A DNA stretch of 34,997 nt from an uncultured bacterium (lineage in GTDB: Bacteria; Hydrothermota; UBA3073). Under the pieces are notes generated by a model. The model made no database searches, had not been told where the DNA came from, and saw nothing but the letters and a program-made list of their open reading frames with translations. Below, in pieces: positions 13,738-34,997 of this stretch. How positions within the stretch are numbered: the first letter of the stretch is position 1; each line of letters starts with the position of its first letter. The position numbers and the translations under genes were made by a program. The stretch spans positions 1-34,997 of the forward strand of contig CAYRBN010000003.1 in NCBI GenBank assembly GCA_964422625.1. Direction: 5' to 3'.

Positions 13738-14033
13738 GGAAAAGTTCTCACGCAAAGGCGCAAAGTCGCAATAACAGGTGGAGCATCTTGCTCCACAACC
13801 TTGACTGTGGGAAAGCCCTTCTAAACACCAGGCTCAATGAAAAAGGAATGTGAGGTATGCGATAGCAGTAAAGTTATATTATTCCATTCAAGAGAGGCTT
13901 CCTTATTTGGACTATGAGGAGGTAGGGGTCTGCAGCGAATCTATTTTTTAGGTAAATTTTTCCTCGGAATAGAGCAGTACTGATTATGACTACATCTCAC
14001 CAATGCATATCAATTTCAAACTCTTTGGCGTGA

Positions 14034-14354: not shown

Positions 14355-14471
14355 TAGCGATATTCCTTTTTGGGGCGGATCTAAAGATCCGCTACTACAT
14401 TAGCTTTGGATATCCATCCCGTGTAGTAGCGTAGCTTTAGCTACGCAAAAAACGAATTATTCACCGGTAAC
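14322..14471 (-). mobile_element. Family-B MITE-like element, copy B3 (150 bp), flanked by a TAAGTAG direct repeat
   Basis: TAAGTAG (14315-14321) | TTCCCGGTGAAAAAATGC...CGAATTATTCACCGGTAAC | TAAGTAG (14472-14478). The interior is the reverse complement of B2. Confidence 0.85.
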
Positions 14472-17245: not shown

Positions 17246-17466
17246 ATCCCAAAATATGCGTTAATAAAACCACAGAGGACACAGAGATTATTCTAAAGAT
17301 AAAAATTCTGTGATTCTCAAAGGATTCTCTGTGCTCTCTAATATAAAAGTTTAGTATATCTTAATGAGGGTTTTTGCACTAAAAGAGTGCACAGAGAAAA
17401 ATGACTAAGTCTTTTATTTTTAACATCTTTCTCCGTGTTCTCTGTGGTTAATGCATAATCTGGGAT
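17246..17466. mobile_element. Family-D MITE-like element, copy D2 (about 221 bp)
   Basis: Terminal inverted repeats: ATCCCAAAATATGCGTTAATAAAACCACAGAG versus the reverse complement of the right end, ATCCCAGATTATGCATTAACCACAGAG. Confidence 0.7.
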
Positions 17467-20077: not shown

Positions 20078-20257
20078 AATTTAGACCTCTGTAGTGGTAC
20101 CCCTTGCTGTTACCCTATTGGGTAGGGGCAAGCCCTGCCCCTACATTACTTAATCTAATCCCTATATTTTCTACAACCAGGCCCTCGCCAATAATATAAG
20201 AGCCGCAGGCAGCCTCTTTTGCGATATTGTAGCTTAGGATAATTCGTTTTCTCTGTT

Positions 20258-20286
20258 ATTATAACATAAAAAATAGGAAAAGTCAA
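20258..20286 (-). promoter_or_regulatory. Sigma-70 type promoter (F cassette) of the KamA-like gene
   Basis: On the minus strand: TTGACT (20286-20281), 17-nt spacer, TATAAT (20263-20258). The leader is about 170 nt. Confidence 0.75.
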
Positions 20287-20471
20287 GAAAAATCTCTCAC
20301 GCCCCAGTTAAATAAAAACCAAAGACATTTAACGGGGTAAACAAAGGCGCAAAGTCGCGAAGAAGCTTAATCCTGTAGGAGGGACTTTCTAGTCCCGACA
20401 TAATCGGGGTTAGAAAACCCCTCCTACAACTTTCGGATAATATAGATTAGTAAAATTAGTGGGGTTTTTTC

Positions 20472-20500
20472 TTGACAAAATCCCAATTATAGGGTATAAT
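20472..20500 (+). promoter_or_regulatory. Sigma-70 type consensus promoter
   Basis: TTGACA (20472-20477), 17-nt spacer, TATAAT (20495-20500). Confidence 0.75.
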
Positions 20501-20531
20501 TAGTTTTTTAGGTAGAGAAAAGAAGGTTCTT

Positions 20532-20768
20532 ATGGAGATTCTAACTATTCTGTTAGTCCTTATCTTCCAGGATGTAAGGGGTTATGATACCCCAAACGAT
20601 GCAGGAGGTTCAATAACGGTTGAGTGGGAGAGAGAGGATGCTCCTCTTGTTGTGGGCTATGAGATATGGAGAAGCCAGTTTCCTGATACTGGCTTCACTA
20701 TGGCTGGCTCTGTTGTTAATGGTATTTGGACATCCTTATTTATGAAAAATGCTTCAGTAAATTTCTAA
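20532..20768 (+). pseudogene. 5' remnant of a surface-protein gene (signal-anchor plus the start of an FN3/Ig-like domain)
   Basis: 78 aa containing YDTPNDAGGSITVEWERED...GYEIWRS. The ORF stops at the TAATTAG site where B4 sits, and there is no room for the rest of the domain before pmbA. Confidence 0.35.
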
Positions 20769-20772
20769 TTAG

Positions 20773-21035
20773 TATCCGGTGAATAACTCGTTTTTTGCGT
20801 AGATAAAGAGGTCGTGCAAAAAATCAATTTACGAAGTCTACGGACAGGGATAAACCCTGTCCCTACAATGTAGGGACAACCCTTGTGGTTATCCGCAAGG
20901 TTATCTTCACAGCCTGTAACGCTACGCTACTACACGGGATAGATATCCAAATCTAATGTAGTAGCGGATCTTTAGACCCGCCCCAAAAAGGAATATCGGT
21001 ATTGATTGTAATTTTGGCAATTTTTCACCGGTAAC
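20773..21035 (+). mobile_element. Family-B element copy B4 (263 bp) carrying nested A3, flanked by a TAATTAG direct repeat
   Basis: TAATTAG (20766-20772) | TATCCGGTGAATAACTCG...TTTTTCACCGGTAAC | TAATTAG (21036-21042). A solo B-type terminus, TTTCCAGTGAAAAAATGG, follows at 21043-21060. Confidence 0.85.
20809..20916 (+). mobile_element. Family-A element copy A3 (108 bp), nested in hairpin 1 of B4
   Basis: TAAAG | AGGTCGTGCAAAAAATC...CTTCACAGCCTG | TAACG. Confidence 0.8.
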
Positions 21036-21082
21036 TAATTAGTTTCCAGTGAAAAAATGGTTAGGACGCAGATAGACATACT

Positions 21083-22411
21083 TCAATATTCTGTCTTACC
21101 TGTAAAGCCAAAATCTTCAATCAGAAGAGAGGGAGCCAAACACCTGAACCGCTCTCCAATCATACTTCTTTCTTGTGAGATCTCTCTCACTTTTTTGAAG
21201 GCTTCAAGGATATTTATAGTAAATCTGAGATTCTTAAGCCCCCGGTCAATCTTCCCATCCTTTATCAGAAAAGTTCCATCACGGGTCATCCCTGTTACCT
21301 GTGTCTGATCAGGGTCTACAATCCTCGTATACCAGAACCTCGTTATCAAAATACCCTCAGATATTGAAGAGAGCATCTCTGATTTACTTGCATCTCCGCC
21401 TTCTATCACAAGATTTAGCGGAAATGGACCACTTTCTTGACAGAGCAGGGCATGACCTGTTGATTGTTTATCTTCCTTGTTTGCATAGAAGGAATCATAG
21501 ACCACCCCTTTTGCTACACCACTCTCTATCAATGGAACTCTCTTCTTAGGGACGCCTTCAAAGTCAAAGACTAACCCTGACATTTGCGGGTGATGGACAT
21601 CATCAAAGATTGTGATATTACTTCCAGTTATAAGATTGCCAATCTTACCCGCCATGAAACTTCTGCCTTCCTGAAATGTCCTAGCGCCAAAGCCTATCCA
21701 GGCTAAAAACATAAGCAGTTCACCAACAGCCTCTTCCTCAAGTAGGACAGTATAAGGTTCTAACTTTGCCTCCTGGGGGTTCTTACCCAACATTGCTTTT
21801 TCTGATGCAATCTCGGCAAGTTCCTCAAAATCTATTGAATAGAAATCATCTGTCCTTATCCCGGCATATCCTGAGGAACTTCCAGATGAGGCAAATATAC
21901 CAATCTTGCAATCACTCTCTTCTCCAAAATTATGGACTCCAAGTGAGTTTGCAATCCCTAACGAACTTCTGCTGGTATTGATAGCGCCTGCTGAGCCAAG
22001 TCCATATCTTTTGCAAACCTTAACAATCTTCTCTACAGCATCTGCCCTCTCTTCTGGGCTGACCTCTCTAATCTCTTTGGGTATCTTTTTTCCCTTTGAA
22101 GGAGAAGGGGATGGAAGAGATACAAATTCATCATCTCTCATCTGGTGAGTTGAGATCTGATAAGCGGTATTCATCAGACCTTTGATATCTGTTTTGTCCT
22201 TTATATGAGCTGATATAGCACCTATCCGCTTATCCTTGATCACCCTTGCCCAGAAACTGTCTTTTTCGCTCTGCAGGTTTTGATGAATGATTGAATTGGC
22301 AAATCTTGTCGTCGCACTCTCCTCTGACCAGATTCCAGCCTCAATCTGATCCGCAGGCACTGACTTGCACGCAAGTCCCAAAATCTCTTCTGCTTTTGAT
22401 TTTGATAACAC
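21083..22411 (-). CDS. pmbA: PmbA/TldE metalloprotease-family protein
   Basis: 442 aa in the TldD/PmbA fold family, lacking the HExxxH motif. GTG start 5 nt after AAGGAGG. Paired with tldD upstream. Confidence 0.8.
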   Translation of the reverse strand: MLSKSKAEEILGLACKSVPADQIEAGIWSEESATTRFANSIIHQNLQSEKDSFWARVIKDKRIGAISAHIKDKTDIKGLMNTAYQISTHQMRDDEFVSLPSPSPSKGKKIPKEIREVSPEERADAVEKIVKVCKRYGLGSAGAINTSRSSLGIANSLGVHNFGEESDCKIGIFASSGSSSGYAGIRTDDFYSIDFEELAEIASEKAMLGKNPQEAKLEPYTVLLEEEAVGELLMFLAWIGFGARTFQEGRSFMAGKIGNLITGSNITIFDDVHHPQMSGLVFDFEGVPKKRVPLIESGVAKGVVYDSFYANKEDKQSTGHALLCQESGPFPLNLVIEGGDASKSEMLSSISEGILITRFWYTRIVDPDQTQVTGMTRDGTFLIKDGKIDRGLKNLRFTINILEAFKKVREISQERSMIGERFRCLAPSLLIEDFGFTGKTEY

Positions 22412-22622
22412 ATTACCTCCTTGTCGCTTCGCTCCATTGTAAAATGAAAATTGTAAATTGCAAAATGCAAATTTATTATGTTAACACATTGGAGTGCAGT
22501 AGCTTGCTACTGCATGCATTACCAAGGTAATGCACTCCAAGTCGCTTCGATCCATTGTCCAATGAAAAATCAAAGACCACAGACTGCAGACCAAAACAAA
22601 CTAACAAACTAACCACCTGACA
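22412..22622 (-). promoter_or_regulatory. C cassette copy C2: the full-length, uninterrupted tldD-pmbA intercistronic module
   Basis: Its parts are a tail of CAAACTAAC-type repeats, two copies of TTTTCATTnnACAATGGAKCGAAGCGAC, a 48-nt Y-shaped palindrome at 22491-22538, a heptamer array at 22438-22472, and the Shine-Dalgarno AAGGAGG. Confidence 0.7.
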
Positions 22623-24050
22623 TCACCTCCCTATCTTCACATTTCTAAATCTGACAGGTGATGTGCCATGACCTACATAGGCTGTCTGCATCGGTTCACC
22701 TTTGCCACAATTGGGTATACCCCAGACATTCCACTCCTTACAGATTGCATCGCAGTTCCTCCATACCTGATATGAGATCCCAGAGTAAGAGGGCCTTTTT
22801 ATCATAGCACCTAATTTTCCGTTTTTGATCTCCCAGCCTATCTGAGCACCTATATGGAAGTTTAACCGCTTATCATCTATGGATGGGGATGTAGGCGCTT
22901 CAATATAGATTCCGCTCTCTGTATCAGCAATCAGATCGGAGAGACTCCAATCTCCAGGTTTAAGATTTATATTTGTCATTCGTATAAGTGGGATACTTGC
23001 CCATGAATCTGCCCTCATTGTCCCGTTACTCTTTTCACCTATTCTGTGGGCTGTCTCTCTTGAGGTTATGTATCCCTTGAATATACCATCTTCCACTAAG
23101 ATTGAGCATTGTGCAGGTATACCTTCGTCATCGTATCCAAAGGAGCCAAGTCCATCCGGAATTGTGGCATCGGACGTAAGTGTTACTATTGGAGAGGCAA
23201 ACTGAAACTTGCCACGCTTATCCAGTGTTAGATGAGAAGTGCCTGCCAAACTCTCCTCTGTCCCCAATACCCTATCAAGTTCAGTTGGATGACCAACAGT
23301 TTCATGGATATGTAATGCCATAACCGAACCATCACATATTATAGTAGTTACCTCAGATGGACACTCTTTTGCAGAAAGTAGGGCATAAGCCTCTTCTGCA
23401 ACTCGTTCTCCATTCTCTTCAAGTTTTAACCCTTTTACAAATTCATATCCTGAGTTCCTGTAATCTCCCATACCGCCAGGAAAGGAACGATCACCTGTCT
23501 TGCCATCTTTTACTGCAGTAGCATGGATGTAAGCTCCTGACTGGGTTATCTCTTGCTCAATAGATGTACCTTCAGAGTTTTTGAACAGCTGGTTCTTTCT
23601 GACAAAAAGAAGGCTTGACTGGGAGATTTTTATTCCCCTTACCTTTCGCATAATCTTATCACAGGATAGGAGCAGATCGATCTTATCTTCATAGGAGACG
23701 GAGAAGGGATCAATTGCTATATCAGTCTTATATTGGGCAACAAGTTTCGGTGCGGATGCCAGTTCTATCTCTTTCTGTTTAAGAGCGCTTGATGACCGGG
23801 CGATCCGACAGGCCAGGGCTGCTGTTTTTTCTATATCCTCACGCGTAAGCCTACAGGTTCCTGCAAACCCCCATGACCCGTCTGTTATGACTCTCACCCC
23901 AATTCCTCTGCTCTCATCGCGTTTAAGAACCTGAACCCGTCCATTTTTCACCGTGATATCCTCTTCTATCCGCTCAAGGAATCTGGCATCAGCATAGCTT
24001 GCTCCTCTAAGTTTTGCGGTATCTATTGCAAGATCAAGTAGTTCTCTCAT
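22623..24050 (-). CDS. tldD: TldD metalloprotease
   Basis: 475 aa from the ATG at 24050 (MRELLDLAIDTAKLRGASYADARF), with AAGGGGG upstream. Contains HETVGH (HExxxH). The 15 extra N-terminal codons in the ORF track lie in the C cassette. Confidence 0.88.
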   Translation of the reverse strand: MRELLDLAIDTAKLRGASYADARFLERIEEDITVKNGRVQVLKRDESRGIGVRVITDGSWGFAGTCRLTREDIEKTAALACRIARSSSALKQKEIELASAPKLVAQYKTDIAIDPFSVSYEDKIDLLLSCDKIMRKVRGIKISQSSLLFVRKNQLFKNSEGTSIEQEITQSGAYIHATAVKDGKTGDRSFPGGMGDYRNSGYEFVKGLKLEENGERVAEEAYALLSAKECPSEVTTIICDGSVMALHIHETVGHPTELDRVLGTEESLAGTSHLTLDKRGKFQFASPIVTLTSDATIPDGLGSFGYDDEGIPAQCSILVEDGIFKGYITSRETAHRIGEKSNGTMRADSWASIPLIRMTNINLKPGDWSLSDLIADTESGIYIEAPTSPSIDDKRLNFHIGAQIGWEIKNGKLGAMIKRPSYSGISYQVWRNCDAICKEWNVWGIPNCGKGEPMQTAYVGHGTSPVRFRNVKIGR

Positions 24051-24261
24051 AATACCCCCTTGTCGCTTCGCTCCATTGAAAAATGAAAAGTGCAAATTGC
24101 AAAATGCAAATTTATTATGTTAACAGATTGGAGGACTGCGGACAGGGATAAACCCTGTCCCTACAATGTCCGCAGGATTGTTTTTGCACGGCCTCAGTAG
24201 ATTGCTACTGCCTCGCAACCAGGAGGTTGCTCCTACCATCTACGCTCTACGCTCAACGCTT
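24051..24261 (-). promoter_or_regulatory. C cassette copy C3, interrupted by A4; includes (TACGCTC) heptamers at 24241-24261
   Basis: It has the same 5' module and heptamers (24077-24111) as C1 and C2. The Y-structure is retained with a different third hairpin, GCAACCaggaGGTTGC. Confidence 0.65.
24135..24194 (+). mobile_element. Family-A element copy A4, an internally and terminally deleted 60-bp derivative
   Basis: ACTGCGGACAGGGATAAACCCTGTCCCTACAATGTCCGCAGGATTGTTTTTGCACGGCCT, followed by CAGTAG (24195-24200). It occupies the same site within C as A2. Confidence 0.7.
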
Positions 24262-24340
24262 TCAATATCGGATATGGGTCAACATAATGGAGATCAAAAT
24301 TGCATATCTTCTCATCAAGTCCAGGTGATAGTGCCATCAG

Positions 24341-25594
24341 CTAATCCCATCCCTTCCGTCGGTGGTTCAACAGGGCGAGTGTCCTGTTCATCTCGTTGTA
24401 CACGATCATCAGACCCTCGTCCACACCCATCCCGGGTTTGGCCAGGATCTGGTCCGGCTGCACAGCAAGAGCGAGCTGCGTACACACCTGCGCTGATCGA
24501 TCTGTCTCGTTGCTTGTCCCCCCTTGGTAGGCACCCACGCCCTTCGCTTTGCAGTAGAGTATCGCGTCTATCGTGTTGGTGATGCTCCCCAGGTCCGGTG
24601 TCTTGATCTGGATCACATCGGCTGCCTGCGCATCGGCGAACTCACGGATATCTTCGAGCGTGTTGCACCACTCGTCAGCGACGATCTTCACCGTGCCACC
24701 CAGCCTGTGTATTCGCCTTCTCAGAAGGGAGAGCCGTTCTATCTGCGCCGATTTGCCTCCAGCGTCGAGCGGTCCTTCAATCAGCAGTTGGTGAGGTGCA
24801 GCCATTTGCTCTAGTTCTAACAGGTAGTCGGCCATCCGCGGGATATCGTCGGAAAAGGCGAGTGCGATCGTGCCGTAGACATCAAGGTGGAAGGACGGAC
24901 GATACCGATCGCCACCGAGCAAGGCACACCGCTCCTTCAACCAGCCGATATACTCGCACAGCAGCTCTCCACGCTGTCCGAGCTTATCTCGCACATTGTT
25001 GATCAACCCGTGGGGAAGGATCGCCGCGTGCTTCAATATTGCCTTGTCCGCGCCTTTATACCGATCATCTCCGCTTTGTGAGAAGATCGGCACCGGTTTC
25101 ACATCGTACGGAAGCCCGTACTCTTCCAGGATTACCTCGGTCATCGTCATCGCTCTTGCTTTGGCTACAGCATCTAGGATCGCTTGCGTCAGCCCGTACT
25201 CGATCGCGGTGTGGACCCGTTTTCCATCGCTTAATCGCACCGATTCACAGTCTGCGGCCAGATCTCTGAACGAATTGAGAGTGCGTCCTTCAAAGAGAGG
25301 GATCACCTCCCGCTCGATGATCGGAATATAATCACGAGCCAGGAACAGAGGGTCACGCCCTCCGGTTCCAGAATACTGGACCGCAGCACAGTCGCCGTAT
25401 GCAACCTGCCCGTCGCACAAGATGAGGATAATAGATATCGACTCCCCCTGTTGACGTATGGAGGTGAACCCGGCGGTCAGAGGAGCGCCGCGATAGGTGA
25501 ACCCATCTGCCTTTGCATCGGCTTTGATCGCCCGCTGGTCGTCGAAATAGAACCCGGTCAATCCGGAAGATAACAGAATCTTAGAAATCTTCAT
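24341..25594 (-). CDS. mal: Methylaspartate ammonia-lyase (3-methylaspartase)
   Basis: 418 aa from the ATG at 25594. MKISKILLSSGLTGFYFDDQRAIK... closely follows the clostridial MAL N-terminus. The start overlaps the glmE end by 14 nt. The CDS is GC-rich. Confidence 0.9.
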   Translation of the reverse strand: MKISKILLSSGLTGFYFDDQRAIKADAKADGFTYRGAPLTAGFTSIRQQGESISIILILCDGQVAYGDCAAVQYSGTGGRDPLFLARDYIPIIEREVIPLFEGRTLNSFRDLAADCESVRLSDGKRVHTAIEYGLTQAILDAVAKARAMTMTEVILEEYGLPYDVKPVPIFSQSGDDRYKGADKAILKHAAILPHGLINNVRDKLGQRGELLCEYIGWLKERCALLGGDRYRPSFHLDVYGTIALAFSDDIPRMADYLLELEQMAAPHQLLIEGPLDAGGKSAQIERLSLLRRRIHRLGGTVKIVADEWCNTLEDIREFADAQAADVIQIKTPDLGSITNTIDAILYCKAKGVGAYQGGTSNETDRSAQVCTQLALAVQPDQILAKPGMGVDEGLMIVYNEMNRTLALLNHRRKGWD

Positions 25595-27071
25595 CGTGCT
25601 TGGGGTCGGTCTTAGGACAGCCGACGAGATGCCCTTTCCCGATCGCGTATACATCATCAATGACCATCTGGAAGTTAGGTTCGCGCCCTTCGCTCTTCCC
25701 CCGTTCGGCGAGCTTCTCCTGATGGAACTCCTTCACTTCCCGGTTGAACGGCAGGTCGCCTGTGGAGAGGAATCTAACCGCCCCTTCTTTGTCGCGCGCC
25801 GGCAGCATTGCCCCATGGGTATGCCGACTCGGAGCAAACGGCACATCAATCACCCCGGCTTCGAACCCCCTGACCGATCCCAAGGCCCAGTCTCCATCGC
25901 CTAGCTCGAGTATCTTATCGATGATCTGCGCAACCTCGGTCTTGATCATCCTCTTCTCAATGTCCAGCTTCTTGGTCTGTTCGATCGACTGTTCTTTGAG
26001 CATCTCCACGATCTGCCTGGTCGCCCGCAACCCTTGCACGTTCGCCTCGCGGGTCGGAACACCGACCGCTTCATGGGGGGTCTTGACGATGATCTTGTTT
26101 GCCTTAGCCATGGCCGCCACGACCGCGCCCCAGGATATCACAGCGAATGCCCTCGCTTCATCCTGAGGAAAACCACCCATCCATTGGTGGAAGACCGTGG
26201 TTACGGTAACATCAGAGAAACCCTCCTGAGCAAGATAATTATCGGCCAGCTCGCGCAACGTTTGAATCGCTGCCACATCCTGCAAAAAATGGCCGTTCTG
26301 CCCACAACCGAAGGTGATGTTTTTCACTCCTTGCTTCGCTGCAAGTACCCCTTCTATGATTCCCACCACATGCGAGATAGAAGGGGGGATCAAAGTGCCG
26401 GTCAAAGTCCCGTACAGTTCACGGTTGATATGTACCCCGTGCTCGTGGTAGTAGCCGACCAGTCGATCAACGTACTGCCAGGAAGAGATCGTCGATTCGA
26501 GGGAGACATCCTTAGCATAAGGGATGTTGTACCCGATTCCTCCTCCTTCGAAGTCGGTGAACCCACCGGCAAGGGTGATCTCGGCGAGGAGCCTGGCGTC
26601 GGGAGTACCGTGGCGGACCTGCAATGGCCGCTTGAGCGCATCCACCAGTCGCCGGCAAGAGGCGACACCGTAGTTGACAGCAGGGAATCCGTTGAGCATC
26701 GACCGCCCCATCTGCTTACTCTCCTTGATCCCATTGTCCGCGTCCTCGTACCGATTCTGACGGGTATAACTGTCTATTGTCGTCGGGAGGATATCGGCCT
26801 CCCCCTCATCCTGCAGGAAGCGAAGCAGTTTGATCTGCTCATCGATGAGAGTTACACCTGCACGTGGTTGGACGAGAGTGCGACCTTCTTTAGCTGCCCG
26901 GTCCAGGACTGTTACGACGTTCTTCTTCCCGGGGAGATCTTTATGGTACGCAAATGCGTCATCTATATCTACATCTTTGCCGGTCGGCCAGAAGGTGAGG
27001 ACCTTCTTCCGCTCCTCTAAGAATACCTCTTCGGGCAACCGCTGATCACTGAACCCTTTTTCATTCATCAT
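25581..27071 (-). CDS. glmE: Glutamate mutase (methylaspartate mutase) epsilon / E subunit
   Basis: 496 aa with WPTGKDVDIDDA...LVQPRAGVTLIDEQIKLLRFLQDEGEADILPTTIDSYTRQNRYEDA. Confidence 0.92.
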   Translation of the reverse strand: MMNEKGFSDQRLPEEVFLEERKKVLTFWPTGKDVDIDDAFAYHKDLPGKKNVVTVLDRAAKEGRTLVQPRAGVTLIDEQIKLLRFLQDEGEADILPTTIDSYTRQNRYEDADNGIKESKQMGRSMLNGFPAVNYGVASCRRLVDALKRPLQVRHGTPDARLLAEITLAGGFTDFEGGGIGYNIPYAKDVSLESTISSWQYVDRLVGYYHEHGVHINRELYGTLTGTLIPPSISHVVGIIEGVLAAKQGVKNITFGCGQNGHFLQDVAAIQTLRELADNYLAQEGFSDVTVTTVFHQWMGGFPQDEARAFAVISWGAVVAAMAKANKIIVKTPHEAVGVPTREANVQGLRATRQIVEMLKEQSIEQTKKLDIEKRMIKTEVAQIIDKILELGDGDWALGSVRGFEAGVIDVPFAPSRHTHGAMLPARDKEGAVRFLSTGDLPFNREVKEFHQEKLAERGKSEGREPNFQMVIDDVYAIGKGHLVGCPKTDPKHDEDF

Positions 27072-28492
27072 CTCTCCTCCTGGTGAACTTCTACCAGATA
27101 TCGGGTTAAGAGTTTGAACGCTGTCCTGGGCATCTGCTTTGCCAGCAGCCCGGCTGAGGCTATGATGTAATCCTTATCTATGTAAAATATTCCTTCTGTC
27201 GGTGTGAGGACATCTACTTGATCCGCTCGCCGTACAGCCCCTGCAAGCACACAACGCGGTGTTTGATGGTGGACAAGAACCCCTCCGGTGCCGATGATTC
27301 TTCGCACCATAGTCAGGTCTTTGCCACGCTGGATGGTTATCTTCCCGTGGGGAGTGAAGAGGTAGTTTAACTTACCGGCATGGCGTGTTACAGCCATCTC
27401 CACCGCTGTGCGAGCAATGATACTCTCTAACACTATCTCTCGCTCGGAAGTGCATATCCGGTCGCTCTCCTGGCTGATCATCTTTACGAAACGCTCCAAC
27501 TCAGTGATAGTAAATCGCTTCTCCTTGTCCAATTGAACCCCGATACGCAGCAAATCAGATTCCTCTATCGCCGCCATTAGGCTGGCCGCACTGTAGCGCA
27601 TTCCCATGTCGCCTTCCACTGTCCGCTTGTCCCAGGGTTCGATCAGCCCCTTGCGAACCACCCCCGGAAGGGTAGGGTCCCCACCAGCCATGGAGTGGAC
27701 ATCGGTCGTTGCTCCGCCTATATCTACGACGATCAGCTCACCCCAACCTTTGTTTTGACCATCCCCTCGAGCGAGCAACCGGGCAGCATCCATCACAGCG
27801 GACGGCGTGGGCATGACGACTCCATCGATCAAATCCTGAATTCTATCAAGCCCTTTGGCGACGACGATCTTCTCCAGGAAGAGTTTGCGGATCGCCTCGC
27901 GCGCCGGCTCGATGTTCAAAGTTTCCAGCTGAGGCATTACATTGTCGGCAACCCGGACATCCTTGCCAGCCCGTCGCAGGATATCAGCCACCTCGTCTTG
28001 CGCAACCTTGTTCCCGGCAACAATGATCGGTGCAGTTAAATCAGATCGGGCAAGCAGACGGGCGTTGTGCAGAATTGTATTACTGTTGCCGCCGTCGATC
28101 CCACCGGCGAGGAGAATGATATCGGCCTCTACTCGGTCGATGGCGGTGATTTCGCTCTTGCTCAGATTGAAGGAGAAAGTCTGTAGGAGTTTAGCCCCCG
28201 CTCCAAGCACTGCCAACTTTGCGGCTTCAGCGGTCAGACTTGGGATCAACCCGATCGCCACCATGCGCAACCCACCTGCGGCACTGCTGCAGGCCAGTTT
28301 GAGATCAGTCCGGGAGAAAATCGGGCCGATCTGCTCCTCCACCTGCGCAACCGCACGGTGGAGTCCATCACTGACATCACGGCCGATCGTTGTCGGCGCC
28401 TTACCGACCGCGAGGATAGTCGCCTGCTCGCAATCGACGGCGACCACTTTGGTAAAAGTGCTCCCAATATCACATAGAATCGCAACTGCCAT
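27068..28492 (-). CDS. glmL: Glutamate mutase accessory / reactivase protein GlmL (MutL)
   Basis: 474 aa in the ASKHA-like fold (CDIGSTFTKV, VVDIGGATTDVHS). It sits between glmS and glmE as in clostridial operons and overlaps the glmE start (ATGATGA). Confidence 0.85.
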   Translation of the reverse strand: MAVAILCDIGSTFTKVVAVDCEQATILAVGKAPTTIGRDVSDGLHRAVAQVEEQIGPIFSRTDLKLACSSAAGGLRMVAIGLIPSLTAEAAKLAVLGAGAKLLQTFSFNLSKSEITAIDRVEADIILLAGGIDGGNSNTILHNARLLARSDLTAPIIVAGNKVAQDEVADILRRAGKDVRVADNVMPQLETLNIEPAREAIRKLFLEKIVVAKGLDRIQDLIDGVVMPTPSAVMDAARLLARGDGQNKGWGELIVVDIGGATTDVHSMAGGDPTLPGVVRKGLIEPWDKRTVEGDMGMRYSAASLMAAIEESDLLRIGVQLDKEKRFTITELERFVKMISQESDRICTSEREIVLESIIARTAVEMAVTRHAGKLNYLFTPHGKITIQRGKDLTMVRRIIGTGGVLVHHQTPRCVLAGAVRRADQVDVLTPTEGIFYIDKDYIIASAGLLAKQMPRTAFKLLTRYLVEVHQEER

Positions 28493-28498
28493 TGGACC

Positions 28499-28933
28499 TC
28501 AGACCTCGGACTTCGGACTTCGGACTTCCAAATCTGCCTTCAGATCGCGAATCGGACCATCGGGCAACGTCCCCTGGGGGTAGACCCGGTCGAAACCCAT
28601 CCTCAGAAAACGCTCTTTCACCTCGTCCCAGTCCTGCTTACCTATCACCAGATTGCCGCCGATGTAGATTATGATATCATTCAGCCCAGCTTCTATGCAT
28701 CGTTCCCGGAACCCCTGACAGTCAAGCTCGCCATGGCCGTAGAGGGAGGAAACAAGAATCGCATCAGCATCCGCCTCTATCGCCGCCTCAATAAAATCTT
28801 GTTGTGAAGAAAGCACTCCGATGTTAACTACATGAAAGCCTGCTTCGGTGAATGCATAGTCGAGGATCTTGTTCCCCACTGCATGGACATCGGCTCCGAT
28901 AACACCTAATATCACGGTCTTTCGATCCTTCAT
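28499..28933 (-). CDS. glmS: Glutamate mutase sigma / S subunit (cobalamin-binding)
   Basis: 144 aa with the B12-binding DxHxxG motif ([12 protein letters not shown]). The last 8 codons (EVRSPKSEV) are encoded by the (AAGTCCG)x3 array. Confidence 0.9.
28507..28527 (-). repeat. (AAGTCCG)x3 heptamer array forming the 3' end of glmS
   Basis: The plus strand reads CGGACTTCGGACTTCGGACTT. The same unit occurs at 11958-11987. Confidence 0.85.
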
Positions 28934-28949
28934 TCTATGTCAACGGTCC

Positions 28950-29086
28950 GGTGCACGTACAAAAACAACCTTGCAGACAACTAGTAGAGTATGTAACCAC
29001 AAGGGTTGCCCCTACATTGTAGGGACAGGGTTTATCCCTGTCCGCAGACCAGTTTTACCATCATAAACTGACTTTTTGCACAGCCT
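28950..29086 (-). mobile_element. Family-A element copy A5, in the glmS / sucD-like spacer
   Basis: CGTACAAAAACAACC...CCACAAGGGTTGCCCCTACATTGTAGGGACAGGGTTTATCCCTGTCCGCAGACC...GACTTTTTGCACAGCCT. The left boundary is uncertain by a few nt. Confidence 0.75.
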
Positions 29087-29113
29087 CAAGTGACTGCATC
29101 TCTTTTCAATATA

Positions 29114-30010
29114 CTAGTTCAAGGCCTGCTGCAACAGGGGAATGATGTCATTAAACCGCTCGGCAACGTGCGCTCCTGCCTGACGCAACCGCTCGATCTT
29201 GCTAGACGGACGTCCTGCATCCCCCTCTATCATCGCTGCGGCATGTCCAAAGACCGTTCCCGACGGTAGCTGCTCGGTGAACCTCCCGGCTACATAGGCA
29301 ATGAGCGGTTTACTGAACTCGCCGGACTCCAGGGAGTCGCTTACCTGCTCTTCAAAACTGGTCCCCGGCTCTGCGAAGAGGACTACCGCTTCGGTAAGGT
29401 CGTCCTGTTCGAATAGCGAGAGCAGGGTATGTGGTTTCGTGCCGACCAGGGCGTCCCCGCCGATGCTAACGCTGGTGCTTACCCCGTAACCCGCTCTCTT
29501 GACCATCCATGAGCATTCAGCTGTCATCCCGCCGCTGCGCGAGATGACACCAACGGTCCCTGGGACGAAACAGCGCTCAACATTATCCCCGCCAATCGGA
29601 CCGAGCTTGCACCTCTCAGCCGGGCTGATGATGCCTACAGAGTTAGGTCCAATGATCTGTACACCGTGGACATGAGCCGACTGCAACAGCTTAAGTGCGT
29701 CCATCTGGGGGATATTCTCTGTAATGATGATGATCAGTTCAATCCCGTTGTCGACCGCTTCCAGGACCGCGTCCAGAACCGCTGCCGGGGGAACATAGAC
29801 AATACTTGTGTTTAACGGATGACTCTTGCACGCCGCCTTGATCGTGTCGTAGACCGGAACACCTTCCACATTTTGCCCGCCACGTCCTGGGGTGACTCCG
29901 GCGACTACCGGTGTCCCGTAGTCGAGCATCTGCTTTGCGACCATCGTCGCCTCGCGTCCTGTGATCCCCTGGATCAGAACCCGCGATTCTTTACCAACCA
30001 GGATAGCCAT
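29114..30010 (-). CDS. Succinyl-CoA synthetase alpha-like subunit of an ADP-forming acyl-CoA ligase (MtkB/SucD family)
   Basis: 298 aa from the ATG at 30010, preceded by GGGAGGGAG. The stop and start overlap as TAATG. It has the CoA-binding motif LIQGITGREAT...VAGVTPGRGG and the phosphohistidine motif FGHAAAMI. Confidence 0.8.
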   Translation of the reverse strand: MAILVGKESRVLIQGITGREATMVAKQMLDYGTPVVAGVTPGRGGQNVEGVPVYDTIKAACKSHPLNTSIVYVPPAAVLDAVLEAVDNGIELIIIITENIPQMDALKLLQSAHVHGVQIIGPNSVGIISPAERCKLGPIGGDNVERCFVPGTVGVISRSGGMTAECSWMVKRAGYGVSTSVSIGGDALVGTKPHTLLSLFEQDDLTEAVVLFAEPGTSFEEQVSDSLESGEFSKPLIAYVAGRFTEQLPSGTVFGHAAAMIEGDAGRPSSKIERLRQAGAHVAERFNDIIPLLQQALN

Positions 30011-31248
30011 TATTCCACTCCCTCCCATTGATCATAATCCGGATAGGCCCTGCGCATCTTCTCAACCATCAGTATAGCGGCTTCATCGAGGGTGATATCA
30101 TCGCCGTGGTAATCGATCCCAGCAGAGATAAATATCTGTCGCCCTTCCTCATCATGGGTACCGGCTTCGCGTACAACGACCGGAAATACTTTACTATCTA
30201 TCCCCATCTCGTCGAGTGCAGCAACGACCCCCTTGGCCATCAGATCAATTTGGGTATTGTTAGTAATGTTATGTGCCAAAAACAGTCCTTTAACTCCGGG
30301 TTTGGAAAGAATCCCCTTACACAAACTGTGGACCTTGCTCTCCGGAGGATTCCCGCCTATCTCGCTGTAGTTCGCCGGCCGGCCGCCGGCCCGTCTCAAG
30401 GCGTCCATCAGCAACAAACTGGCTCCGCCTCCACCGCACATGAACCCGATGTCACCACCGTCGAACTCGGTATAACGGGCAGTACCGCGGTAGGACTCCT
30501 TCGCACTCGCCTCAATCAGATTCTTCTCCAGTGCGGTGAGTGGACGCCAGGTGCGATCACTACCCGGCTGGACCATATGGGACAGTGCAGACTGGCGGTA
30601 GAGAGCGTTTTCATCTATGTTCAATACACAGTCAGCAGCAACGATCGTCTCCTCCTCGGTCAGCACGAGCGGGTTGATCTCGACCAGCATAGCGTCGTAT
30701 CTAACGAACATCTGATAGAGGCGGATAAGGATCGTGCTTGCCTGGCGCAGAGGCTTGCCGGTCAGACCGAGGTCGGACCATATCTCGATCGCCTTGTACC
30801 CAGGCAGGCCAACGAGAGGATCTATATGGGTCTTGCTCACCTTGTCAGGATGCTCACGACTCAGCTGTTCGATATTCACCCCGCCCAATGAGCTTGTCAC
30901 AATAGCCACCCGTTGGGCAGATTTATCTATGGTGATCGACAGGTAGAACTCCCGTGCGATCGCCAGCTTCTGCTCTACCAACACCTGCTCAACCGGATAG
31001 CCGGATACGGTCATTCCCAGTATCTTCTCCGTTCGTTCTATCGCCTCTTTCTCGTTCTCGGCAAAGGCGATTGCCCCTGCCTTCCCCCGTTTCCCTATCG
31101 GGATCAGCGCTTTGATCACCACAGGAAAAACAATCTCCTGAGCAAACTGCGCAGCCAGTGCGGCGGTCGATGCAGCCCTGCCTGTAGGAATAGGGATATT
31201 ACACTCTGCCAGCAGGCCCTTTCCATGGTCTTCGAGAATACGTGCCAT
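30010..31248 (-). CDS. Succinyl-CoA synthetase beta-like (ATP-grasp) subunit (MtkA/SucC family)
   Basis: 412 aa with N-terminal MARILEDHGKGLLAECNIPIP (compare the SucC ATP-grasp start) and C-terminal ANYSEIGGNP. AGGAGG lies upstream. Confidence 0.75.
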   Translation of the reverse strand: MARILEDHGKGLLAECNIPIPTGRAASTAALAAQFAQEIVFPVVIKALIPIGKRGKAGAIAFAENEKEAIERTEKILGMTVSGYPVEQVLVEQKLAIAREFYLSITIDKSAQRVAIVTSSLGGVNIEQLSREHPDKVSKTHIDPLVGLPGYKAIEIWSDLGLTGKPLRQASTILIRLYQMFVRYDAMLVEINPLVLTEEETIVAADCVLNIDENALYRQSALSHMVQPGSDRTWRPLTALEKNLIEASAKESYRGTARYTEFDGGDIGFMCGGGGASLLLMDALRRAGGRPANYSEIGGNPPESKVHSLCKGILSKPGVKGLFLAHNITNNTQIDLMAKGVVAALDEMGIDSKVFPVVVREAGTHDEEGRQIFISAGIDYHGDDITLDEAAILMVEKMRRAYPDYDQWEGVE

Positions 31249-31287
31249 ATCTGATACTTCCTCCTAACTTGCGATAAGATTAATTAG

Positions 31288-31437
31288 TGTCCGGTGAATA
31301 ATTCGTTTTTTGCGTAGCTAAAGCTACGCTACTACACGGGATGGATATCCAAAGCTAATGTAGTAGCGGATCTTTAGATCCGCCCCAAAAAGGAATATCC
31401 ATATTGATTGTGGTTTTAGCATTTTTCCAGCGGTAAC
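31288..31437 (+). mobile_element. Family-B element copy B5 (150 bp), in the citE-like / sucC-like spacer
   Basis: TAATTAG (31281-31287) | TGTCCGGTGAATAATTCG...TTTTTCCAGCGGTAAC | TAATTAC (31438-31444). The right repeat contains the citE-like stop codon. Confidence 0.85.
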
Positions 31438-31440
31438 TAA

Positions 31441-32310
31441 TTACTCCGCCCTTTGTATATCATTGGCAAGGGCGAGAAGCCTCTCTGCATTGCGGGCGAC
31501 AGGATAGTCAATGAATTTACCGTTGTCAAGCATTATTGCCGCATGCCCGGCGGATTCAGCTTCCCTGAACGCAGCCACGACACGCTCGGCATAGGCGATC
31601 TCCTCTTGCGATGGAGAAAAGACCTCATTTACCGGCTCTATCTGTGCAGGATGGATGACCAGTTTCCCTTGAAAGCCAAGCTTGCGCCCTACGCCCGCAT
31701 CAGCGAGCAGACCGGAAGGGTTCTTGATCTCAGGATAGACAGTATCAATCGGCGGTTCCAACTCAGCGGCGGCAGAGGCGTTGACAAGGTGTGAACGAGC
31801 ATAGAGGATCTCGACCCCGCCTTTCTCTAACTGAACATTGATATCGGTGGTATAGTCTATTGCCCCAAAGCAAAGTCGGCGTACACGCGCGACGCTCGTA
31901 GCGATATCGTAGGCGTTGTGAACACCGGCGGCATTCTCCACCAGCGGGATGAGGTCTATTGAACCGAGAGGAAGTGACCGCTCCTTCTCCAGATGTGAGA
32001 GGTACCAATCGACCTTGATCAGATCGACTGCTTTCTCCGTCTTAGCAAGGACGATCCCATCCAGGTGAGATGAGACGACAGCAGCTAGATCACCAATAGT
32101 AAGCCCAGTGGAAAGGGCATTAACTCGCACATAGCAGGGACGATCGCGAGAGGTCATCAACACCTCTGCAATTGACTTGCGCGTCGCTGCCTTCTCAGCG
32201 ACCGGTACCGAATCCTCCAAATCGAGGATGACGACATCGGCGTTGAGCTGCAACGCTTTCTCCACACGCCGGGACACATTTCCCGGGGCAAACAGCAAGG
32301 AACGAAACAT
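31441..32310 (-). CDS. CitE / HpcH-HpaI family acyl-CoA lyase (malyl-, beta-methylmalyl- or citramalyl-CoA lyase-like)
   Basis: 289 aa from the ATG at 32310 (MFRSLLFAPGN...). It has VILDLEDSV and the overall citrate-lyase beta pattern. The substrate cannot be read from the sequence. Confidence 0.8.
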   Translation of the reverse strand: MFRSLLFAPGNVSRRVEKALQLNADVVILDLEDSVPVAEKAATRKSIAEVLMTSRDRPCYVRVNALSTGLTIGDLAAVVSSHLDGIVLAKTEKAVDLIKVDWYLSHLEKERSLPLGSIDLIPLVENAAGVHNAYDIATSVARVRRLCFGAIDYTTDINVQLEKGGVEILYARSHLVNASAAAELEPPIDTVYPEIKNPSGLLADAGVGRKLGFQGKLVIHPAQIEPVNEVFSPSQEEIAYAERVVAAFREAESAGHAAIMLDNGKFIDYPVARNAERLLALANDIQRAE

Positions 32311-32466
32311 GATCAATCTCAAAATAGCAATGTTTATCGCCTACTACAACTCCACCAATCGGCGGTATAAAATATTGCGCAGCAAAGCAGAAGAGTGGTA
32401 CATGTTTAGCGTTCATCTGTCAAGCAAGCTCAACCACAGGAGACGATCGTTAGTTTGATTATCTCC

Positions 32467-32495
32467 ATTATACCATAGAAATTCTAATTTGTCAA
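32467..32495 (-). promoter_or_regulatory. Sigma-70 type consensus promoter upstream of the GC-rich operon
   Basis: On the minus strand: TTGACA (32495-32490), 17-nt spacer, TATAAT (32472-32467). An AT-rich leader of about 150 nt runs to 32310. Confidence 0.75.
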
Positions 32496-32528
32496 GATTT
32501 TTTTTTGACACACAACCATCTCACTCCA

Positions 32529-33407
32529 TCAAAACCTTACACTCCCAGAAATCCTTGTGTTCACTCCAAGTTCGTGTTGGCTCTGTCCGTAGTCTATTCT
32601 GAAACTGCCGATTTTGAGGCCCACACCAAAAGAGGGATCTCCTCTATCCAATCCCACCCTTACTGCAAATCTCTCTCTATATACATATTCAAGTCCTATA
32701 TAAGGATCACTCTTTAGGACATCAAGTTTCGTAATTTTACCCTCCAAATCTGTATCAAGTCCTGCTGCTATCACAAGGGTTCCATCAAACCTTTCAATAG
32801 GAATCTTATATGATACCCCTGTTCTCAAGAGAGGTGGAATTATTTCCCTTGTATTAGTGCTCCAGAATAGGACAGTAGTCGTGAGATTCTGGATAGAAAG
32901 CCCAAATGAAAAAGGAGGAAGATCATAGAGTAGACCACCATCTATACCAATCCCATAAGCAGTTCCCTCTCTGAAATTTCTGTATATCGCCATGAGAGTC
33001 ACACCCAGCGAGAGATTGGGATATATCGCATTTCTACCATAAGTAAAGTAGAATATCCAATCGTCTACATCCAAGGTGTCCAAGGGAATGGTATCGTCAG
33101 TGAATATCATATCCGGAATTCTTATCTGCCTGAGTGCAATTCCTATACCCTCGGTCTCCCCTGAGATAGCAAATGAGATGGCGTTATAGTTCACTATTCC
33201 ACCAAAACCCGGAGAGTGGAAAAGGAATATCTCTTTTCCTTTTCCCCTTACAATACAGGCAGGATTCCAGAAAGGAGCCTCTGCAGCCTCTGCCAGGGTA
33301 ACATAAGCAGAGCCTAATCCTTGTGCCCTTCCCCCGACAGGAAACAGTAGAAATTCGCCGGCATACTTTGCCCCAAATGATATTAGAAATGAGAGAAGGA
33401 GAGTCAT
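32529..33407 (-). CDS. Outer-membrane beta-barrel protein, PorV/PorQ-like
   Basis: Start chosen at MTLLLSFLISFG. GEFLLFPVGGRAQGLGSAYVTLAEAAEAPFWNPA resembles the N-terminal signature of PorV/PorQ-type barrels. The rest has an alternating beta-strand pattern and ends in a terminal F. Confidence 0.45.
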   Translation of the reverse strand: MTLLLSFLISFGAKYAGEFLLFPVGGRAQGLGSAYVTLAEAAEAPFWNPACIVRGKGKEIFLFHSPGFGGIVNYNAISFAISGETEGIGIALRQIRIPDMIFTDDTIPLDTLDVDDWIFYFTYGRNAIYPNLSLGVTLMAIYRNFREGTAYGIGIDGGLLYDLPPFSFGLSIQNLTTTVLFWSTNTREIIPPLLRTGVSYKIPIERFDGTLVIAAGLDTDLEGKITKLDVLKSDPYIGLEYVYRERFAVRVGLDRGDPSFGVGLKIGSFRIDYGQSQHELGVNTRISGSVRF

Positions 33408-33481
33408 ATCAGAATTAGGAGTAATGGAACAAGTTCGACCTTTGCAATTAGAGAGACTGATTGCCACAGATAACTAATAGT

Positions 33482-34822
33482 CTATGGCAATTTTATGAAC
33501 CCATCTTTCATAAGTGCATCTGTCTGATCCCTTGCCTTTTTTATCTTCTCTTTGGCAATCCTCATCAACTCTTCTTTTGAAAAGTTGAGCCTTGCAACGC
33601 CTTGTTCTATTGCCTTCAAAGCAACCGCAACCGCTTCTCTGGGGAATACATCCCAATCATCCATTGTCGGAATTATATACTCCTCATGGAAGCCTCTGTC
33701 CTCTGCACACTTTGCCAGCTCTACTGCGGCTGATATACACATCTCATCAGTAATAGTGGTTGCCATAACATCCAGAGTGCCTCTGAATATTGACGGAAAC
33801 CCAAGTGAATTATTCACTTGATTGGGAAAATCTGACCTGCCAGTTGCCACAATCCTTGCACCTGCCTCTTTTGCCTCCCATGGCCATATCTCTGGAATCG
33901 GGTTGGCAATGGGGAAAACAATAGCGTCTTTTGCCATACCTTTTATCCATTCCTGCTTTATGGTTCCCGGACCCGGCTTTGATGCGGCTATACAGACATC
34001 TGCACCTTTCATAGCATCAGGAATATCACCTACAACATTATCAGCGTTTGTTATCTGGCACAGTTCCCACTTCTCCTTATAGTTATCTACGAGGTCTGTT
34101 CTGCCTCTATGTAATGTCCCCTTTGAGTCGCACAATATTATATTAGCGGCTGGCACACCTGCCTTGATGAACACCCAAATACTCCTTATATTAGAGGCAC
34201 CCGCACCAATGAATACAACTTTAATTTTGCTAATATCCTTTCCAACTATCTTCACCGCATTTATAAAGCCTGCCAATATCACTGTTGCCGTGCCCTGCTG
34301 GTCATCGTGCCAGACGGGTATTCTTGCCCTTTTTCGGAGCTCATTCAGGATATAGAAGCATTTTGGTTGGGCTATATCCTCAAGGTTTATTCCACCAAAG
34401 GTTGGCTGGAGCAGAAGAGTAGTCTCTACTATCTTGTCAGGGTCTTTTGTATCAAGGCCTATAGGGAATGCATCAACCCCTCCAAGATACTTGAACAGTA
34501 GTGCCTTTCCTTCCATAACAGGCATCCCTGCCTCTGGACCTATATCCCCAAGTCCGAGTACCCTGGTGCCGTCTGTTATCACTGCAACGAAGTTTGCCTT
34601 GTTGGTATGTTCAAACACCTTTTCTGGATTTGCTTTTATATCTTTACAAGGCTGTGCAACTCCAGGCGTATACCAGATTGCGAAATCATCAAAACTCCGT
34701 ATACAACACTTTGGAACTACCTCCACCTTTCCTTGATAGAAAGGATGAAGCCTCATAGCATCCTCACCAGGCTTTTTTGCCCTGGCAAGGAGTTCCTCCA
34801 CTGTCAATTTTTTCCCTGTCAT
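33482..34822 (-). CDS. NAD(P)-dependent malic enzyme (short form, no PTA domain)
   Basis: 446 aa from the ATG at 34822, with AGGAG upstream. Motifs YTPGVA, VITDGTRVLGLGDIG and FIGAGASNI. The upstream 39 codons of the ORF-track call lie inside repeat D4. Confidence 0.9.
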   Translation of the reverse strand: MTGKKLTVEELLARAKKPGEDAMRLHPFYQGKVEVVPKCCIRSFDDFAIWYTPGVAQPCKDIKANPEKVFEHTNKANFVAVITDGTRVLGLGDIGPEAGMPVMEGKALLFKYLGGVDAFPIGLDTKDPDKIVETTLLLQPTFGGINLEDIAQPKCFYILNELRKRARIPVWHDDQQGTATVILAGFINAVKIVGKDISKIKVVFIGAGASNIRSIWVFIKAGVPAANIILCDSKGTLHRGRTDLVDNYKEKWELCQITNADNVVGDIPDAMKGADVCIAASKPGPGTIKQEWIKGMAKDAIVFPIANPIPEIWPWEAKEAGARIVATGRSDFPNQVNNSLGFPSIFRGTLDVMATTITDEMCISAAVELAKCAEDRGFHEEYIIPTMDDWDVFPREAVAVALKAIEQGVARLNFSKEELMRIAKEKIKKARDQTDALMKDGFIKLP

Positions 34823-34860
34823 ATCCACTCCTGGCGGAACTGAAATTCCACTTTTACTTA

Positions 34861-34997
34861 ATCCCAGATTATGCATTAACCACAGATTACACAGATTTTC
34901 ACAGATTGCATAAGAATCTTCAAGAATATGACTTTTCACCTTTTAGGTGAAGAACATATCTCGATCTGATTGTTGCAAATTCTTTACTGACTTGTCT
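34861..34997 (-). mobile_element. Family-D element copy D4 (cut by the window end)
   Basis: It is the reverse complement of 7511-7647, with 4 mismatches in 137 nt. Confidence 0.8.

Follow-up and report, generated by a model that had tools for sequence, protein, structure and literature searches.

How did seven GC-rich genes come to stand in the chromosome of an AT-rich bacterium? The question is raised by contig CAYRBN010000003.1 of assembly GCA_964422625.1, from an uncultured bacterium (34,997 nt, the whole of which is referred to below as the window), where the genes in question form a block on the minus strand between positions 24341 and 32310. An initial annotation, made from the letters alone, had proposed that they are a horizontally acquired operon. 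The data presented here strongly support the horizontal-transfer reading. At a probability that we put at roughly 0.9, an operon of 8.0 kb (24341 to ~32342) passed from a GC-rich bacterium of Candidatus Bipolaricaulota (Acetothermia) to an AT-rich member of candidate division WOR-3 (Caldifarciminota) from the same habitat, and was then fitted with a host-style promoter, entered by host repeats and subjected to drift toward AT. It encodes the upper part of the methylaspartate pathway, together with a putative ligase/lyase module. The features of the block and its borders are collected in Table 1.

The block departs from its surroundings at every level of composition measured. In a sliding-window analysis, GC content is 0.51-0.57 between ~24.0 and 32.5 kb and 0.36-0.45 elsewhere in the window. 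The GC content of the seven coding sequences (CDS) lies between 0.52 and 0.57, and that of the spacers within the block between 0.39 and 0.45. GC at third codon positions (GC3) ranges from 0.57 to 0.66 in the block (mean 0.621), against a mean of 0.384 (standard deviation 0.047) for the 20 flanking CDS, 19 of which fall within 0.31-0.44. The difference is significant (Mann-Whitney p = 6e-5) and places the block ~5 standard deviations above the host genes. GC at first codon positions (GC1) is likewise shifted, and so is amino-acid usage: G+A+R+P make up 0.29 of residues in the block and 0.25 in the flanks, F+Y+M+I+N+K 0.23 and 0.30, respectively. The bias thus goes beyond synonymous codon choice. 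GC-normalised tetranucleotide usage correlates poorly between the block and the host flanks (r = 0.37), whereas 4.3-kb chunks of host sequence correlate with the remaining host sequence at a mean r of 0.86 (minimum 0.73). GC, GC3 and tetranucleotide measurements therefore all agree with the original impression of GC-rich genes, with G/C-rich third positions, lying in AT-rich surroundings. The sole outlier among the flanking genes is a Na+/Ca2+ exchanger gene (16195-17193; GC3 0.535, ~3 standard deviations over the host mean), which may be a second, smaller foreign gene.

The flanks consist of ordinary chromosomal genes, and the block sits between a PorV/PorQ-family gene and tldD. Downstream lie genes for TldD and PmbA, for a KamA-family protein and for RarA, on the upstream side those for the PorV/PorQ-family protein and malic enzyme; at a greater distance the flanks also encode IspD, IspF, a class II aminoacyl-tRNA synthetase, MreD and PurA. 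PmbA, KamA and a flippase-like protein have cluster mates (>=90% identity) labelled candidate division WOR-3, which is phylum Caldifarciminota in the current NCBI taxonomy, and the best named matches of TldD are WOR-3 proteins at 59-62% identity. On a contig carrying a PorV homolog (L092; 60% identity), a region not homologous to the window has an oligonucleotide signature that matches the host (r = 0.93).

The genes of the block have their relatives in another phylum. A scan of the GTDB species representatives with GlmE, the catalytic subunit of glutamate mutase, confirmed at least 591 encoding stretches, and the best 80 loci were compared. The closest of these 80, from Candidatus Acetothermia UBA7950 (L003; GlmE 79% identical), is the only one to have all seven genes in the same order, with protein identities of 64-81%; here operon and housekeeping flanks are alike in composition (GC 0.49, GC3 ~0.5). 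The other loci among the 80 are mostly from Bacillota, show 60-67% identity and have the classical architecture; in most of them CitE is only 35-42% identical and there is no SucCD. The exceptions are two Halanaerobiaceae metagenome-assembled genomes (MAGs), in which mal is followed by a more distantly related SucCD/CitE set. When the SucC-like protein was used as query, closer relatives came up at 92% (P0121, labelled Candidatus Bipolaricaulota), 86% and 82%, and the corresponding contigs (L085-L091) all bear the same seven-gene operon with short spacers. GlmE and SucC alike have cluster mates labelled Ca. Bipolaricaulota. Acetothermia and Bipolaricaulota are the same phylum.

One of these contigs, L085 (GC 0.59), was obtained in the same sampling project as the window. 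Four collinear segments, which between them take in every gene, align it with the block at 87% identity in DNA, and the proteins are 84-93% identical (CitE-like 90%, SucD-like 92%, GlmE 91%). GC content across operon and flanks is 0.56-0.60 in L085 and 0.57-0.67 in L089. A tetranucleotide comparison with the whole of L085 was dropped because the genes are homologous, and non-homologous flanks were used instead: the block correlates with those of L085, L089 and L003 at r = 0.66-0.72, while the same flanks correlate with the host at only 0.21-0.26. Phylogeny was assessed solely by neighbour joining, on concatenated GlmS, GlmL, GlmE and methylaspartase with 200 bootstraps. The tree groups the window with L085 (193/200), this pair with L089 (200/200) and all three with L003 (200/200), leaving Bacillota outside. 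Judged by this tree, the phylogeny of the block is incongruent with its WOR-3 flanks and nested in a Bipolaricaulota clade. Since the operon is compositionally native within that clade, the nesting indicates that transfer proceeded from Bipolaricaulota to WOR-3.

The DNA alignment with L085 is interrupted at two places only, each occupied by a host repeat. The citE-sucC spacer, 36 nt long in the donor-type operon, carries in the window a B-type element whose matching segment (31281-31444) is 95% identical to 14314-14477; more copies are found at 12659-12799 and 20904-21041. Alignment of the filled with the empty site leaves a 3-4 nt overlap (TTAR) at the joint, which may be a target duplication. 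The sucD-glmS spacer, 55 nt in the donor-type operon, is filled in the window by an A-type element with no clear target duplication. Part of this element (~28994-29064) is 97% complementary to 12163-12232; further copies lie at 19-82 and 20836-20911, and a partial one at 24131-24209. The two elements were looked for in the window and in the fetched loci, and neither is present in any donor-type contig examined. The sites being filled in the window and empty in the donor, both elements must have been inserted after acquisition. This confirms the presence of A and B repeats in the glmS/sucD-like and sucC-like/citE-like spacers (called A5 and B5 at first) and, through the filled and empty sites, the suggestion that acquisition was followed by colonisation by host elements. 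The same comparison is direct proof that these intergenic repeats of WOR-3 are, or recently were, mobile. The A and B elements are ~130-160 nt long and multicopy, are palindromic or have inverted repeats at their ends, lie only in spacers, and are seen here as insertions when compared with an empty site; in these respects they resemble bacterial miniature inverted-repeat transposable elements (MITEs) and repetitive extragenic palindromic (REP) sequences. Unlike for MITEs, a parent transposase is not known, and duplication at the target is ambiguous for B and not clear for A.

To follow the coding sequence after transfer, the sites at which window and L085 differ were polarised on L089 as outgroup. 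At third codon positions, GC-to-AT and AT-to-GC changes number 349 and 30 on the window branch and 146 and 53 on the L085 branch; at first positions the figures are 70 and 18 against 26 and 31, and at second positions 36 and 15 against 14 and 22, a set in which only the contrast between branches is informative because the very GC-rich outgroup inflates GC-to-AT counts on both. GC3 of the operon is 0.75-0.86 in L089, 0.62-0.78 in L085 and lowest in the window. The coding sequence of the block has partly drifted toward the AT-rich composition of the host, and the AT-ward bias on the window branch is that expected for GC-rich foreign DNA in an AT-rich genome. The direction of these substitutions bears on the opposite view, in which the block is original to WOR-3 and vertically inherited, its GC content resulting from selection (for example codon bias in highly expressed genes, or amino-acid constraints), or in which WOR-3 donated the operon to Bipolaricaulota. 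Presence of the block in at least two host strains, and our finding no WOR-3 relative without it at this site, fit such a view. We nevertheless consider it very improbable, given the AT-ward substitutions, the extent of the GC3 shift and its extension to GC1 and amino-acid usage, the lack of any WOR-3 genome among the best 80 GlmE loci, and the nesting of the window's copy within three diverged Bipolaricaulota lineages where operon and flanks have one composition.

An abrupt change in GC content, in a metagenome where both organisms co-occur, could also arise if the assembler had joined a Bipolaricaulota fragment to WOR-3 DNA. The chance that the contig is such a chimera or misassembly is negligible. 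Host-specific repeats inside the block, in two of its spacers, had already been put forward as speaking against it. In addition, the copy in the co-occurring Bipolaricaulota is 13% different in DNA, which means that the block does not belong to that organism, and the AT-biased drift is specific to the window's copy. Finally, two assemblies from other samples of the project encode the exact GlmL protein, and each contains both junctions (L001, 99.97% identity; L002, 100%). The upstream junction (malic enzyme, PorV-family gene, citE) is found again in two Logan contigs (L094 and L095) and in a contig of WOR-3 MAG GCA_021129395.1 (L096), which is 99.94% identical to window positions 34908-31345 and ends inside the B repeat. 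The recurring junctions thus exclude a chimera as well.

Contig L094 (1-1839, matching window 31622-33482), from a second, diverged strain of the host, shows an uneven pattern. It agrees with the window at 99-100% over the citE gene, the promoter-containing spacer and the final ~200 nt of the PorV-family gene; in the rest of that gene, mismatches number 6-23 per 100 nt. Such a change fits a recombination breakpoint near 32720 or, alternatively, hypervariable surface loops. From this single 1.8-kb contig, the pattern suggests recent recombinational spread of the block (a gene-specific sweep) within the host population.

The borders of the acquired DNA can be placed closely. Downstream, the stretch homologous to L085 goes no further than the stop codon of mal (24341). 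Upstream, a blastn segment (32342-31438) matches L085 1376-2281 at 86.8%, and donor homology ends 32 nt ahead of the citE ATG, with weak similarity continuing to ~65 nt. What follows is a leader that is identical in all host-strain contigs and 99% identical in L094, preceded by a promoter situated 157 nt upstream of the citE-like ATG (at 32310). The TTGACA-17-TATAAT promoter, described from the start as host-like, indeed lies beyond donor homology and fits a host template (A/T tract, CTTGAC, N17, TGnTATAAT) found at 1515-1543, 6151-6179, ~13710 and ~20259; the host promoters sharing this template also have leaders of 130-180 nt. No counterpart of the promoter exists upstream of citE in L085, L087 or L089. 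No Rfam match was obtained on the window, nor on the 157-nt leader even at E<=1 (no riboswitch or known RNA). We infer that the operon is expressed from a host-style promoter lying outside the transferred DNA. On the 3' side, the block runs, as previously noted, into a C cassette (24048-24133), which forms the 5' untranslated region (UTR), ribosome-binding site and start of tldD. The copy that precedes pmbA (22409-22494) is 92% identical to it, and the relative with 88% identity, L083, has the cassette too.

In its abrupt deviation of GC, GC3 and oligonucleotide usage, its phylogenetic incongruence and its substitution toward host composition, the block resembles ameliorating genomic islets. 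It differs from a classical genomic island, which would have an integrase, a tRNA target and direct repeats, and its borders fall instead at the last gene's stop codon and ~30-65 nt ahead of the first gene.

Table 1. Features of the acquired operon and its borders, in order along the direction of transcription (aa, amino acids; TRF, tandem repeat search).
Feature	Position	Strand	Basis or remark
Sigma-70 consensus promoter with extended -10 (TTGACA, 17 nt, TG-n-TATAAT)	32467..32495	-	12/12 match, with TG
Leader without clear donor homology	32343..32466	-	Weak L085 similarity perhaps to ~32375
Donor-derived 5' UTR and ribosome-binding region of citE-like gene; upstream limit of acquired DNA	32311..32342	-	L085 alignment
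CitE-like CoA-ester lyase, HpcH/HpaI fold, 289 aa	31441..32310	-	Pfam HpcH_HpaI 5.8e-42
Host B-type repeat, ~157 nt, terminal inverted repeats	31284..31440	.	Directly 3' of citE stop codon
Donor-derived rest of citE-sucC spacer, GGAGG ribosome-binding site	31249..31283	-	Collinear with L085, L086, L087
SucC-like ATP-grasp beta subunit of ADP-forming acid-CoA ligase, 412 aa	30010..31248	-	Pfam ATP-grasp_2 4e-51
SucD-like CoA-binding alpha subunit, 298 aa	29114..30010	-	Pfam CoA_binding + Ligase_CoA
Host A-type composite repeat, ~129 nt, nested palindromes, TGCAAAAA/TTTTTGTA-type ends	28958..29086	.	In sucD-glmS spacer
glmS (mutS), B12-binding S subunit of glutamate (methylaspartate) mutase, 144 aa	28499..28933	-	NF002612 223 bits, cut-off 110
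GAAGTCC (GGACTTC) heptamer array, 5 units	28494..28528	-	TRF; spans glmS stop, reaches glmL start
glmL (mutL), glutamate mutase accessory (reactivating) protein, 474 aa	27068..28492	-	NF040745 582 bits, cut-off 475
glmE (mutE), catalytic E subunit of glutamate mutase, 496 aa	25581..27071	-	TIGR01503 729 bits, cut-off 390
Methylaspartate ammonia-lyase (methylaspartase, mal), 417 aa; stop codon is downstream limit of acquired DNA	24341..25594	-	TIGR01502 559 bits, cut-off 286
Host-type downstream spacer: GCGTAGA x3 run, partial A element (24131-24209), C cassette	24048..24340	-	5' side of tldD

Genes were assigned from Pfam and NCBIfam profiles, applying curated equivalog cut-offs. GlmS, GlmL, GlmE and methylaspartase all score above them. 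The mutase/methylaspartase core is thus complete, and the genes for conversion of glutamate to 3-methylaspartate and then to mesaconate and ammonia are present and intact in the block. The gene that was initially named glmS encodes, by its NF002612 equivalog match, the S subunit of glutamate mutase and not glucosamine-6-phosphate synthase.

The remaining three proteins have the folds and domains of the right superfamilies, yet fall under every curated family cut-off. The CitE-like protein stays below all named NCBIfam cut-offs (citE, 218 against 443; RipC_Ccl, 161 against 375). Its nearest solved relatives are Deinococcus CitE (1sgj), human CLYBL (5vxc) and acyl-CoA lyases (8khl/9nzb), CLYBL and the acyl-CoA lyases having E values of 1e-33 to 1e-37. 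It is nearest, then, to lyases of free CoA esters, including CLYBL and itaconate-pathway lyases, and is predicted to be an (S)-citramalyl-CoA lyase. The SucC-like subunit scores 287 against a cut-off of 370 for SucC and 240 against 604 for malate-CoA ligase, and also matches Pfam Citrate_bind (9.6e-11); the SucD-like subunit scores 277 against 353 for SucD and 271 against 336 for malate-CoA ligase. SucC proteins and citryl-CoA synthetase (6hxq) are the nearest solved relatives of the ligase.

In the route that we envisage, GlmS and GlmE, assisted by accessory GlmL, would convert glutamate to 3-methylaspartate in a B12-dependent reaction, and methylaspartase would turn this into mesaconate and ammonia. 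Mesaconate would be hydrated to (S)-citramalate by an enzyme encoded elsewhere, for example a class I fumarase; enzymes of this class are able to act as mesaconases (PMC4682846). The SucCD-like ligase would then spend ATP to convert (S)-citramalate to citramalyl-CoA, which the CitE-like lyase would cleave to acetyl-CoA and pyruvate, the two enzymes together standing in for the classical, acyl-carrier-protein-dependent citramalate lyase complex. The case for a citramalate route is made by the resemblance of the lyase to citramalyl-CoA lyases and by tight linkage: in every Bipolaricaulota copy, across three diverged lineages with 64-93% identity, the seven genes keep one order with spacers of 27-55 nt. 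A gene for cob(I)alamin adenosyltransferase (CobA/CobO/BtuR) adjoins Bipolaricaulota operons (L085 690-1259; L089 8182-8724; L090 8649-9191), which fits a B12-dependent mutase; it did not come along with the block into the WOR-3 host.

Parts of this arrangement are familiar. GlmS, GlmL, GlmE and mal, in the canonical order glmS-glmL-glmE-mal, are those of the Clostridium tetanomorphum-type methylaspartate pathway. Unlike that type, however, the block lacks mesaconase and CitD/CitF and has, upstream, a SucCD-like ligase and a stand-alone CitE-like lyase instead; neither a mesaconase gene (class I fumarase-like) nor CitD/CitF genes were found in the block, in the rest of the window or in the Bipolaricaulota copies. 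The combination of a CitE/HpcH lyase with a separate activating enzyme is shared with mesaconate/itaconate catabolism in Burkholderia/Pseudomonas and with the malate thiokinase and malyl-CoA lyase of the serine cycle. In such systems the CitE/HpcH-family lyase cleaves a hydroxy-dicarboxyl-CoA ester that the separate activating enzyme supplies (PMC4682846). The Burkholderia/Pseudomonas type employs a CoA-transferase and a Ccl/RipC lyase, whereas an ATP-dependent SucCD-type ligase is predicted here, and the ligase and lyase of the block score under the malate-CoA ligase and RipC_Ccl cut-offs. Thiokinases of the MtkAB type are themselves homologs of SucCD.

Several points weigh against the account given so far. 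Taxon labels come from the binning of MAGs, and one TldD relative at 88% is labelled Dehalococcoidia. The 13% DNA divergence from the closest donor-type contig means that the actual donor is unsampled. The searches found no mobility gene, tRNA or border direct repeat in the window, in agreement with the early remark that no integrase, tRNA or att-like repeat marks the borders, and no match in plasmid or phage collections. An empty site, in which the PorV-family gene would adjoin tldD, was not found in the WOR-3 relatives L083, L084 and L092. L083 (TldD 88%) has only 250 nt upstream, matching nothing, a length too short to say anything on presence or absence of the block; L084, with a WOR-3 TldD homolog, and L092, with the 60% PorV homolog, are not syntenic with the window; and a metagenome scan with the host TldD found no confirmed relative. 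With regard to function, ligase and lyase lying below every curated cut-off, their substrates are read from context only. Moreover, there is no hydratase gene in any copy of the operon, and the citE-sucCD triad also exists without glm genes (L097).

Occurrence of the triad without glm genes favours a reading in which the transfer is real and the ligase and lyase act otherwise, either converting mesaconate to mesaconyl-CoA, as an analogue of the haloarchaeal methylaspartate cycle, or handling citrate or malate unrelated to glutamate breakdown. The Citrate_bind match, citryl-CoA synthetase among the solved relatives, the missing mesaconase and the Halanaerobiaceae triad, which is near the glm-mal genes but not contiguous with them, all lean the same way. 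On balance such a role seems unlikely, though by no large measure: the seven genes are tightly linked and constant in order in all Bipolaricaulota copies, the closest characterised relatives of the CitE-like protein include citramalyl-CoA lyases, and the mesaconyl-CoA route would also need a hydratase that the operon does not contain. No hydratase or mesaconase gene was seen in the window, in the L003 flanks or between mal and citE in the Halanaerobiaceae loci L009 and L012, where the intervening genes encode RNase PH and Ham1. In L097 (7092-17137), the lone citE-sucC-sucD triad, whose SucC is 65% identical to that of the window, has a JetABCD (Wadjet-type) gene set next to it and, on the opposite side, an IclR regulator, a thiamine pyrophosphate enzyme and a dehydratase cluster. 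Occurrence of the triad on its own indicates that it moves independently of the glutamate mutase genes.

Returning to the citramalate route, we tentatively propose, at somewhat less than even odds, that the citE/sucC/sucD-like module and glmS-glmL-glmE-mal constitute an undescribed variant of the methylaspartate pathway that is native to Bipolaricaulota and is now passing, complete in itself, to other phyla. Acetyl-CoA could then be formed directly, the acyl-carrier-protein-dependent citramalate lyase giving way to two enzymes: a CoA ligase that forms ADP and acts on citramalate (or mesaconate), and a citramalyl-CoA lyase of the free-CoA kind. A literature search returned no paper on methylaspartate in Acetothermia, Bipolaricaulota or WOR-3, nor any on a citramalate-CoA ligase.

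As an event, this is a very clean but ordinary horizontal gene transfer, inter-phylum transfer of a catabolic operon being already known as a type, and current understanding is not overturned. Its value lies in the clean example and in a lead for enzymology. Fully documented transfers between two uncultured candidate phyla that share a habitat are rare, and this one offers near-donor sequence, exact borders, two repeats dated as post-acquisition, a host-type promoter and quantified amelioration. The prediction for this WOR-3 lineage is that it acquired glutamate fermentation dependent on B12, and the uncharacterised pair of CoA ligase and lyase becomes a candidate for an alternative to citramalate lyase.

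A further repeat within the block, the heptamer array at the end of glmS, had been taken for a host array. The array itself is real: the final nine residues of GlmS are encoded in it, and the ATG of glmL adjoins it. Its assignment to the host was wrong, however, since L085 and L086 carry an array of the same motif (~210 nt) at the same glmS/glmL junction; the array thus came with the operon and is not a host marker. It is absent at this junction in L089 and L003. Tandem arrays with a period of 7 nt and varied units are common in spacers, often adjoining the starts or ends of genes. Examples in the window are at 2526-2556, 3259-3318, 4809-4860, 6342-6379, 10662-10729, 22436-22473, 24080-24110 and 24239-24260, and such spacer arrays occur in WOR-3-like and Bipolaricaulota contigs alike (L092, L083, L084, L085, L003).

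Other repeats of the window were noted in passing. Copies of the C cassette, 80-94% identical, lie at 24048-24133, 22409-22494, 6307-6406 (inverted) and 12009-12081, with one in L083 at 1812-1867; the cassette supplies the 5' UTR, ribosome-binding site and start region not only of tldD but also of pmbA and of a periplasmic-binding-protein gene at 6359. Two segments, 11955-14460 (2.5 kb) and 20078-21082 (1.0 kb), have as their only open reading frames of >=100 amino acids those at 12780-13106 and 14034-14354 (106-108 amino acids). Both are packed with A and B copies and promoter-like cassettes, and yield no Rfam match at gathering thresholds. Lastly, a pair of 140-nt inverted repeats, 97% complementary to each other (7510-7649 and 34858-34997), is located upstream of the aminoacyl-tRNA synthetase gene and the malic enzyme gene, with related sequence also at 17432-17466; it represents another family of intergenic repeats of the host.

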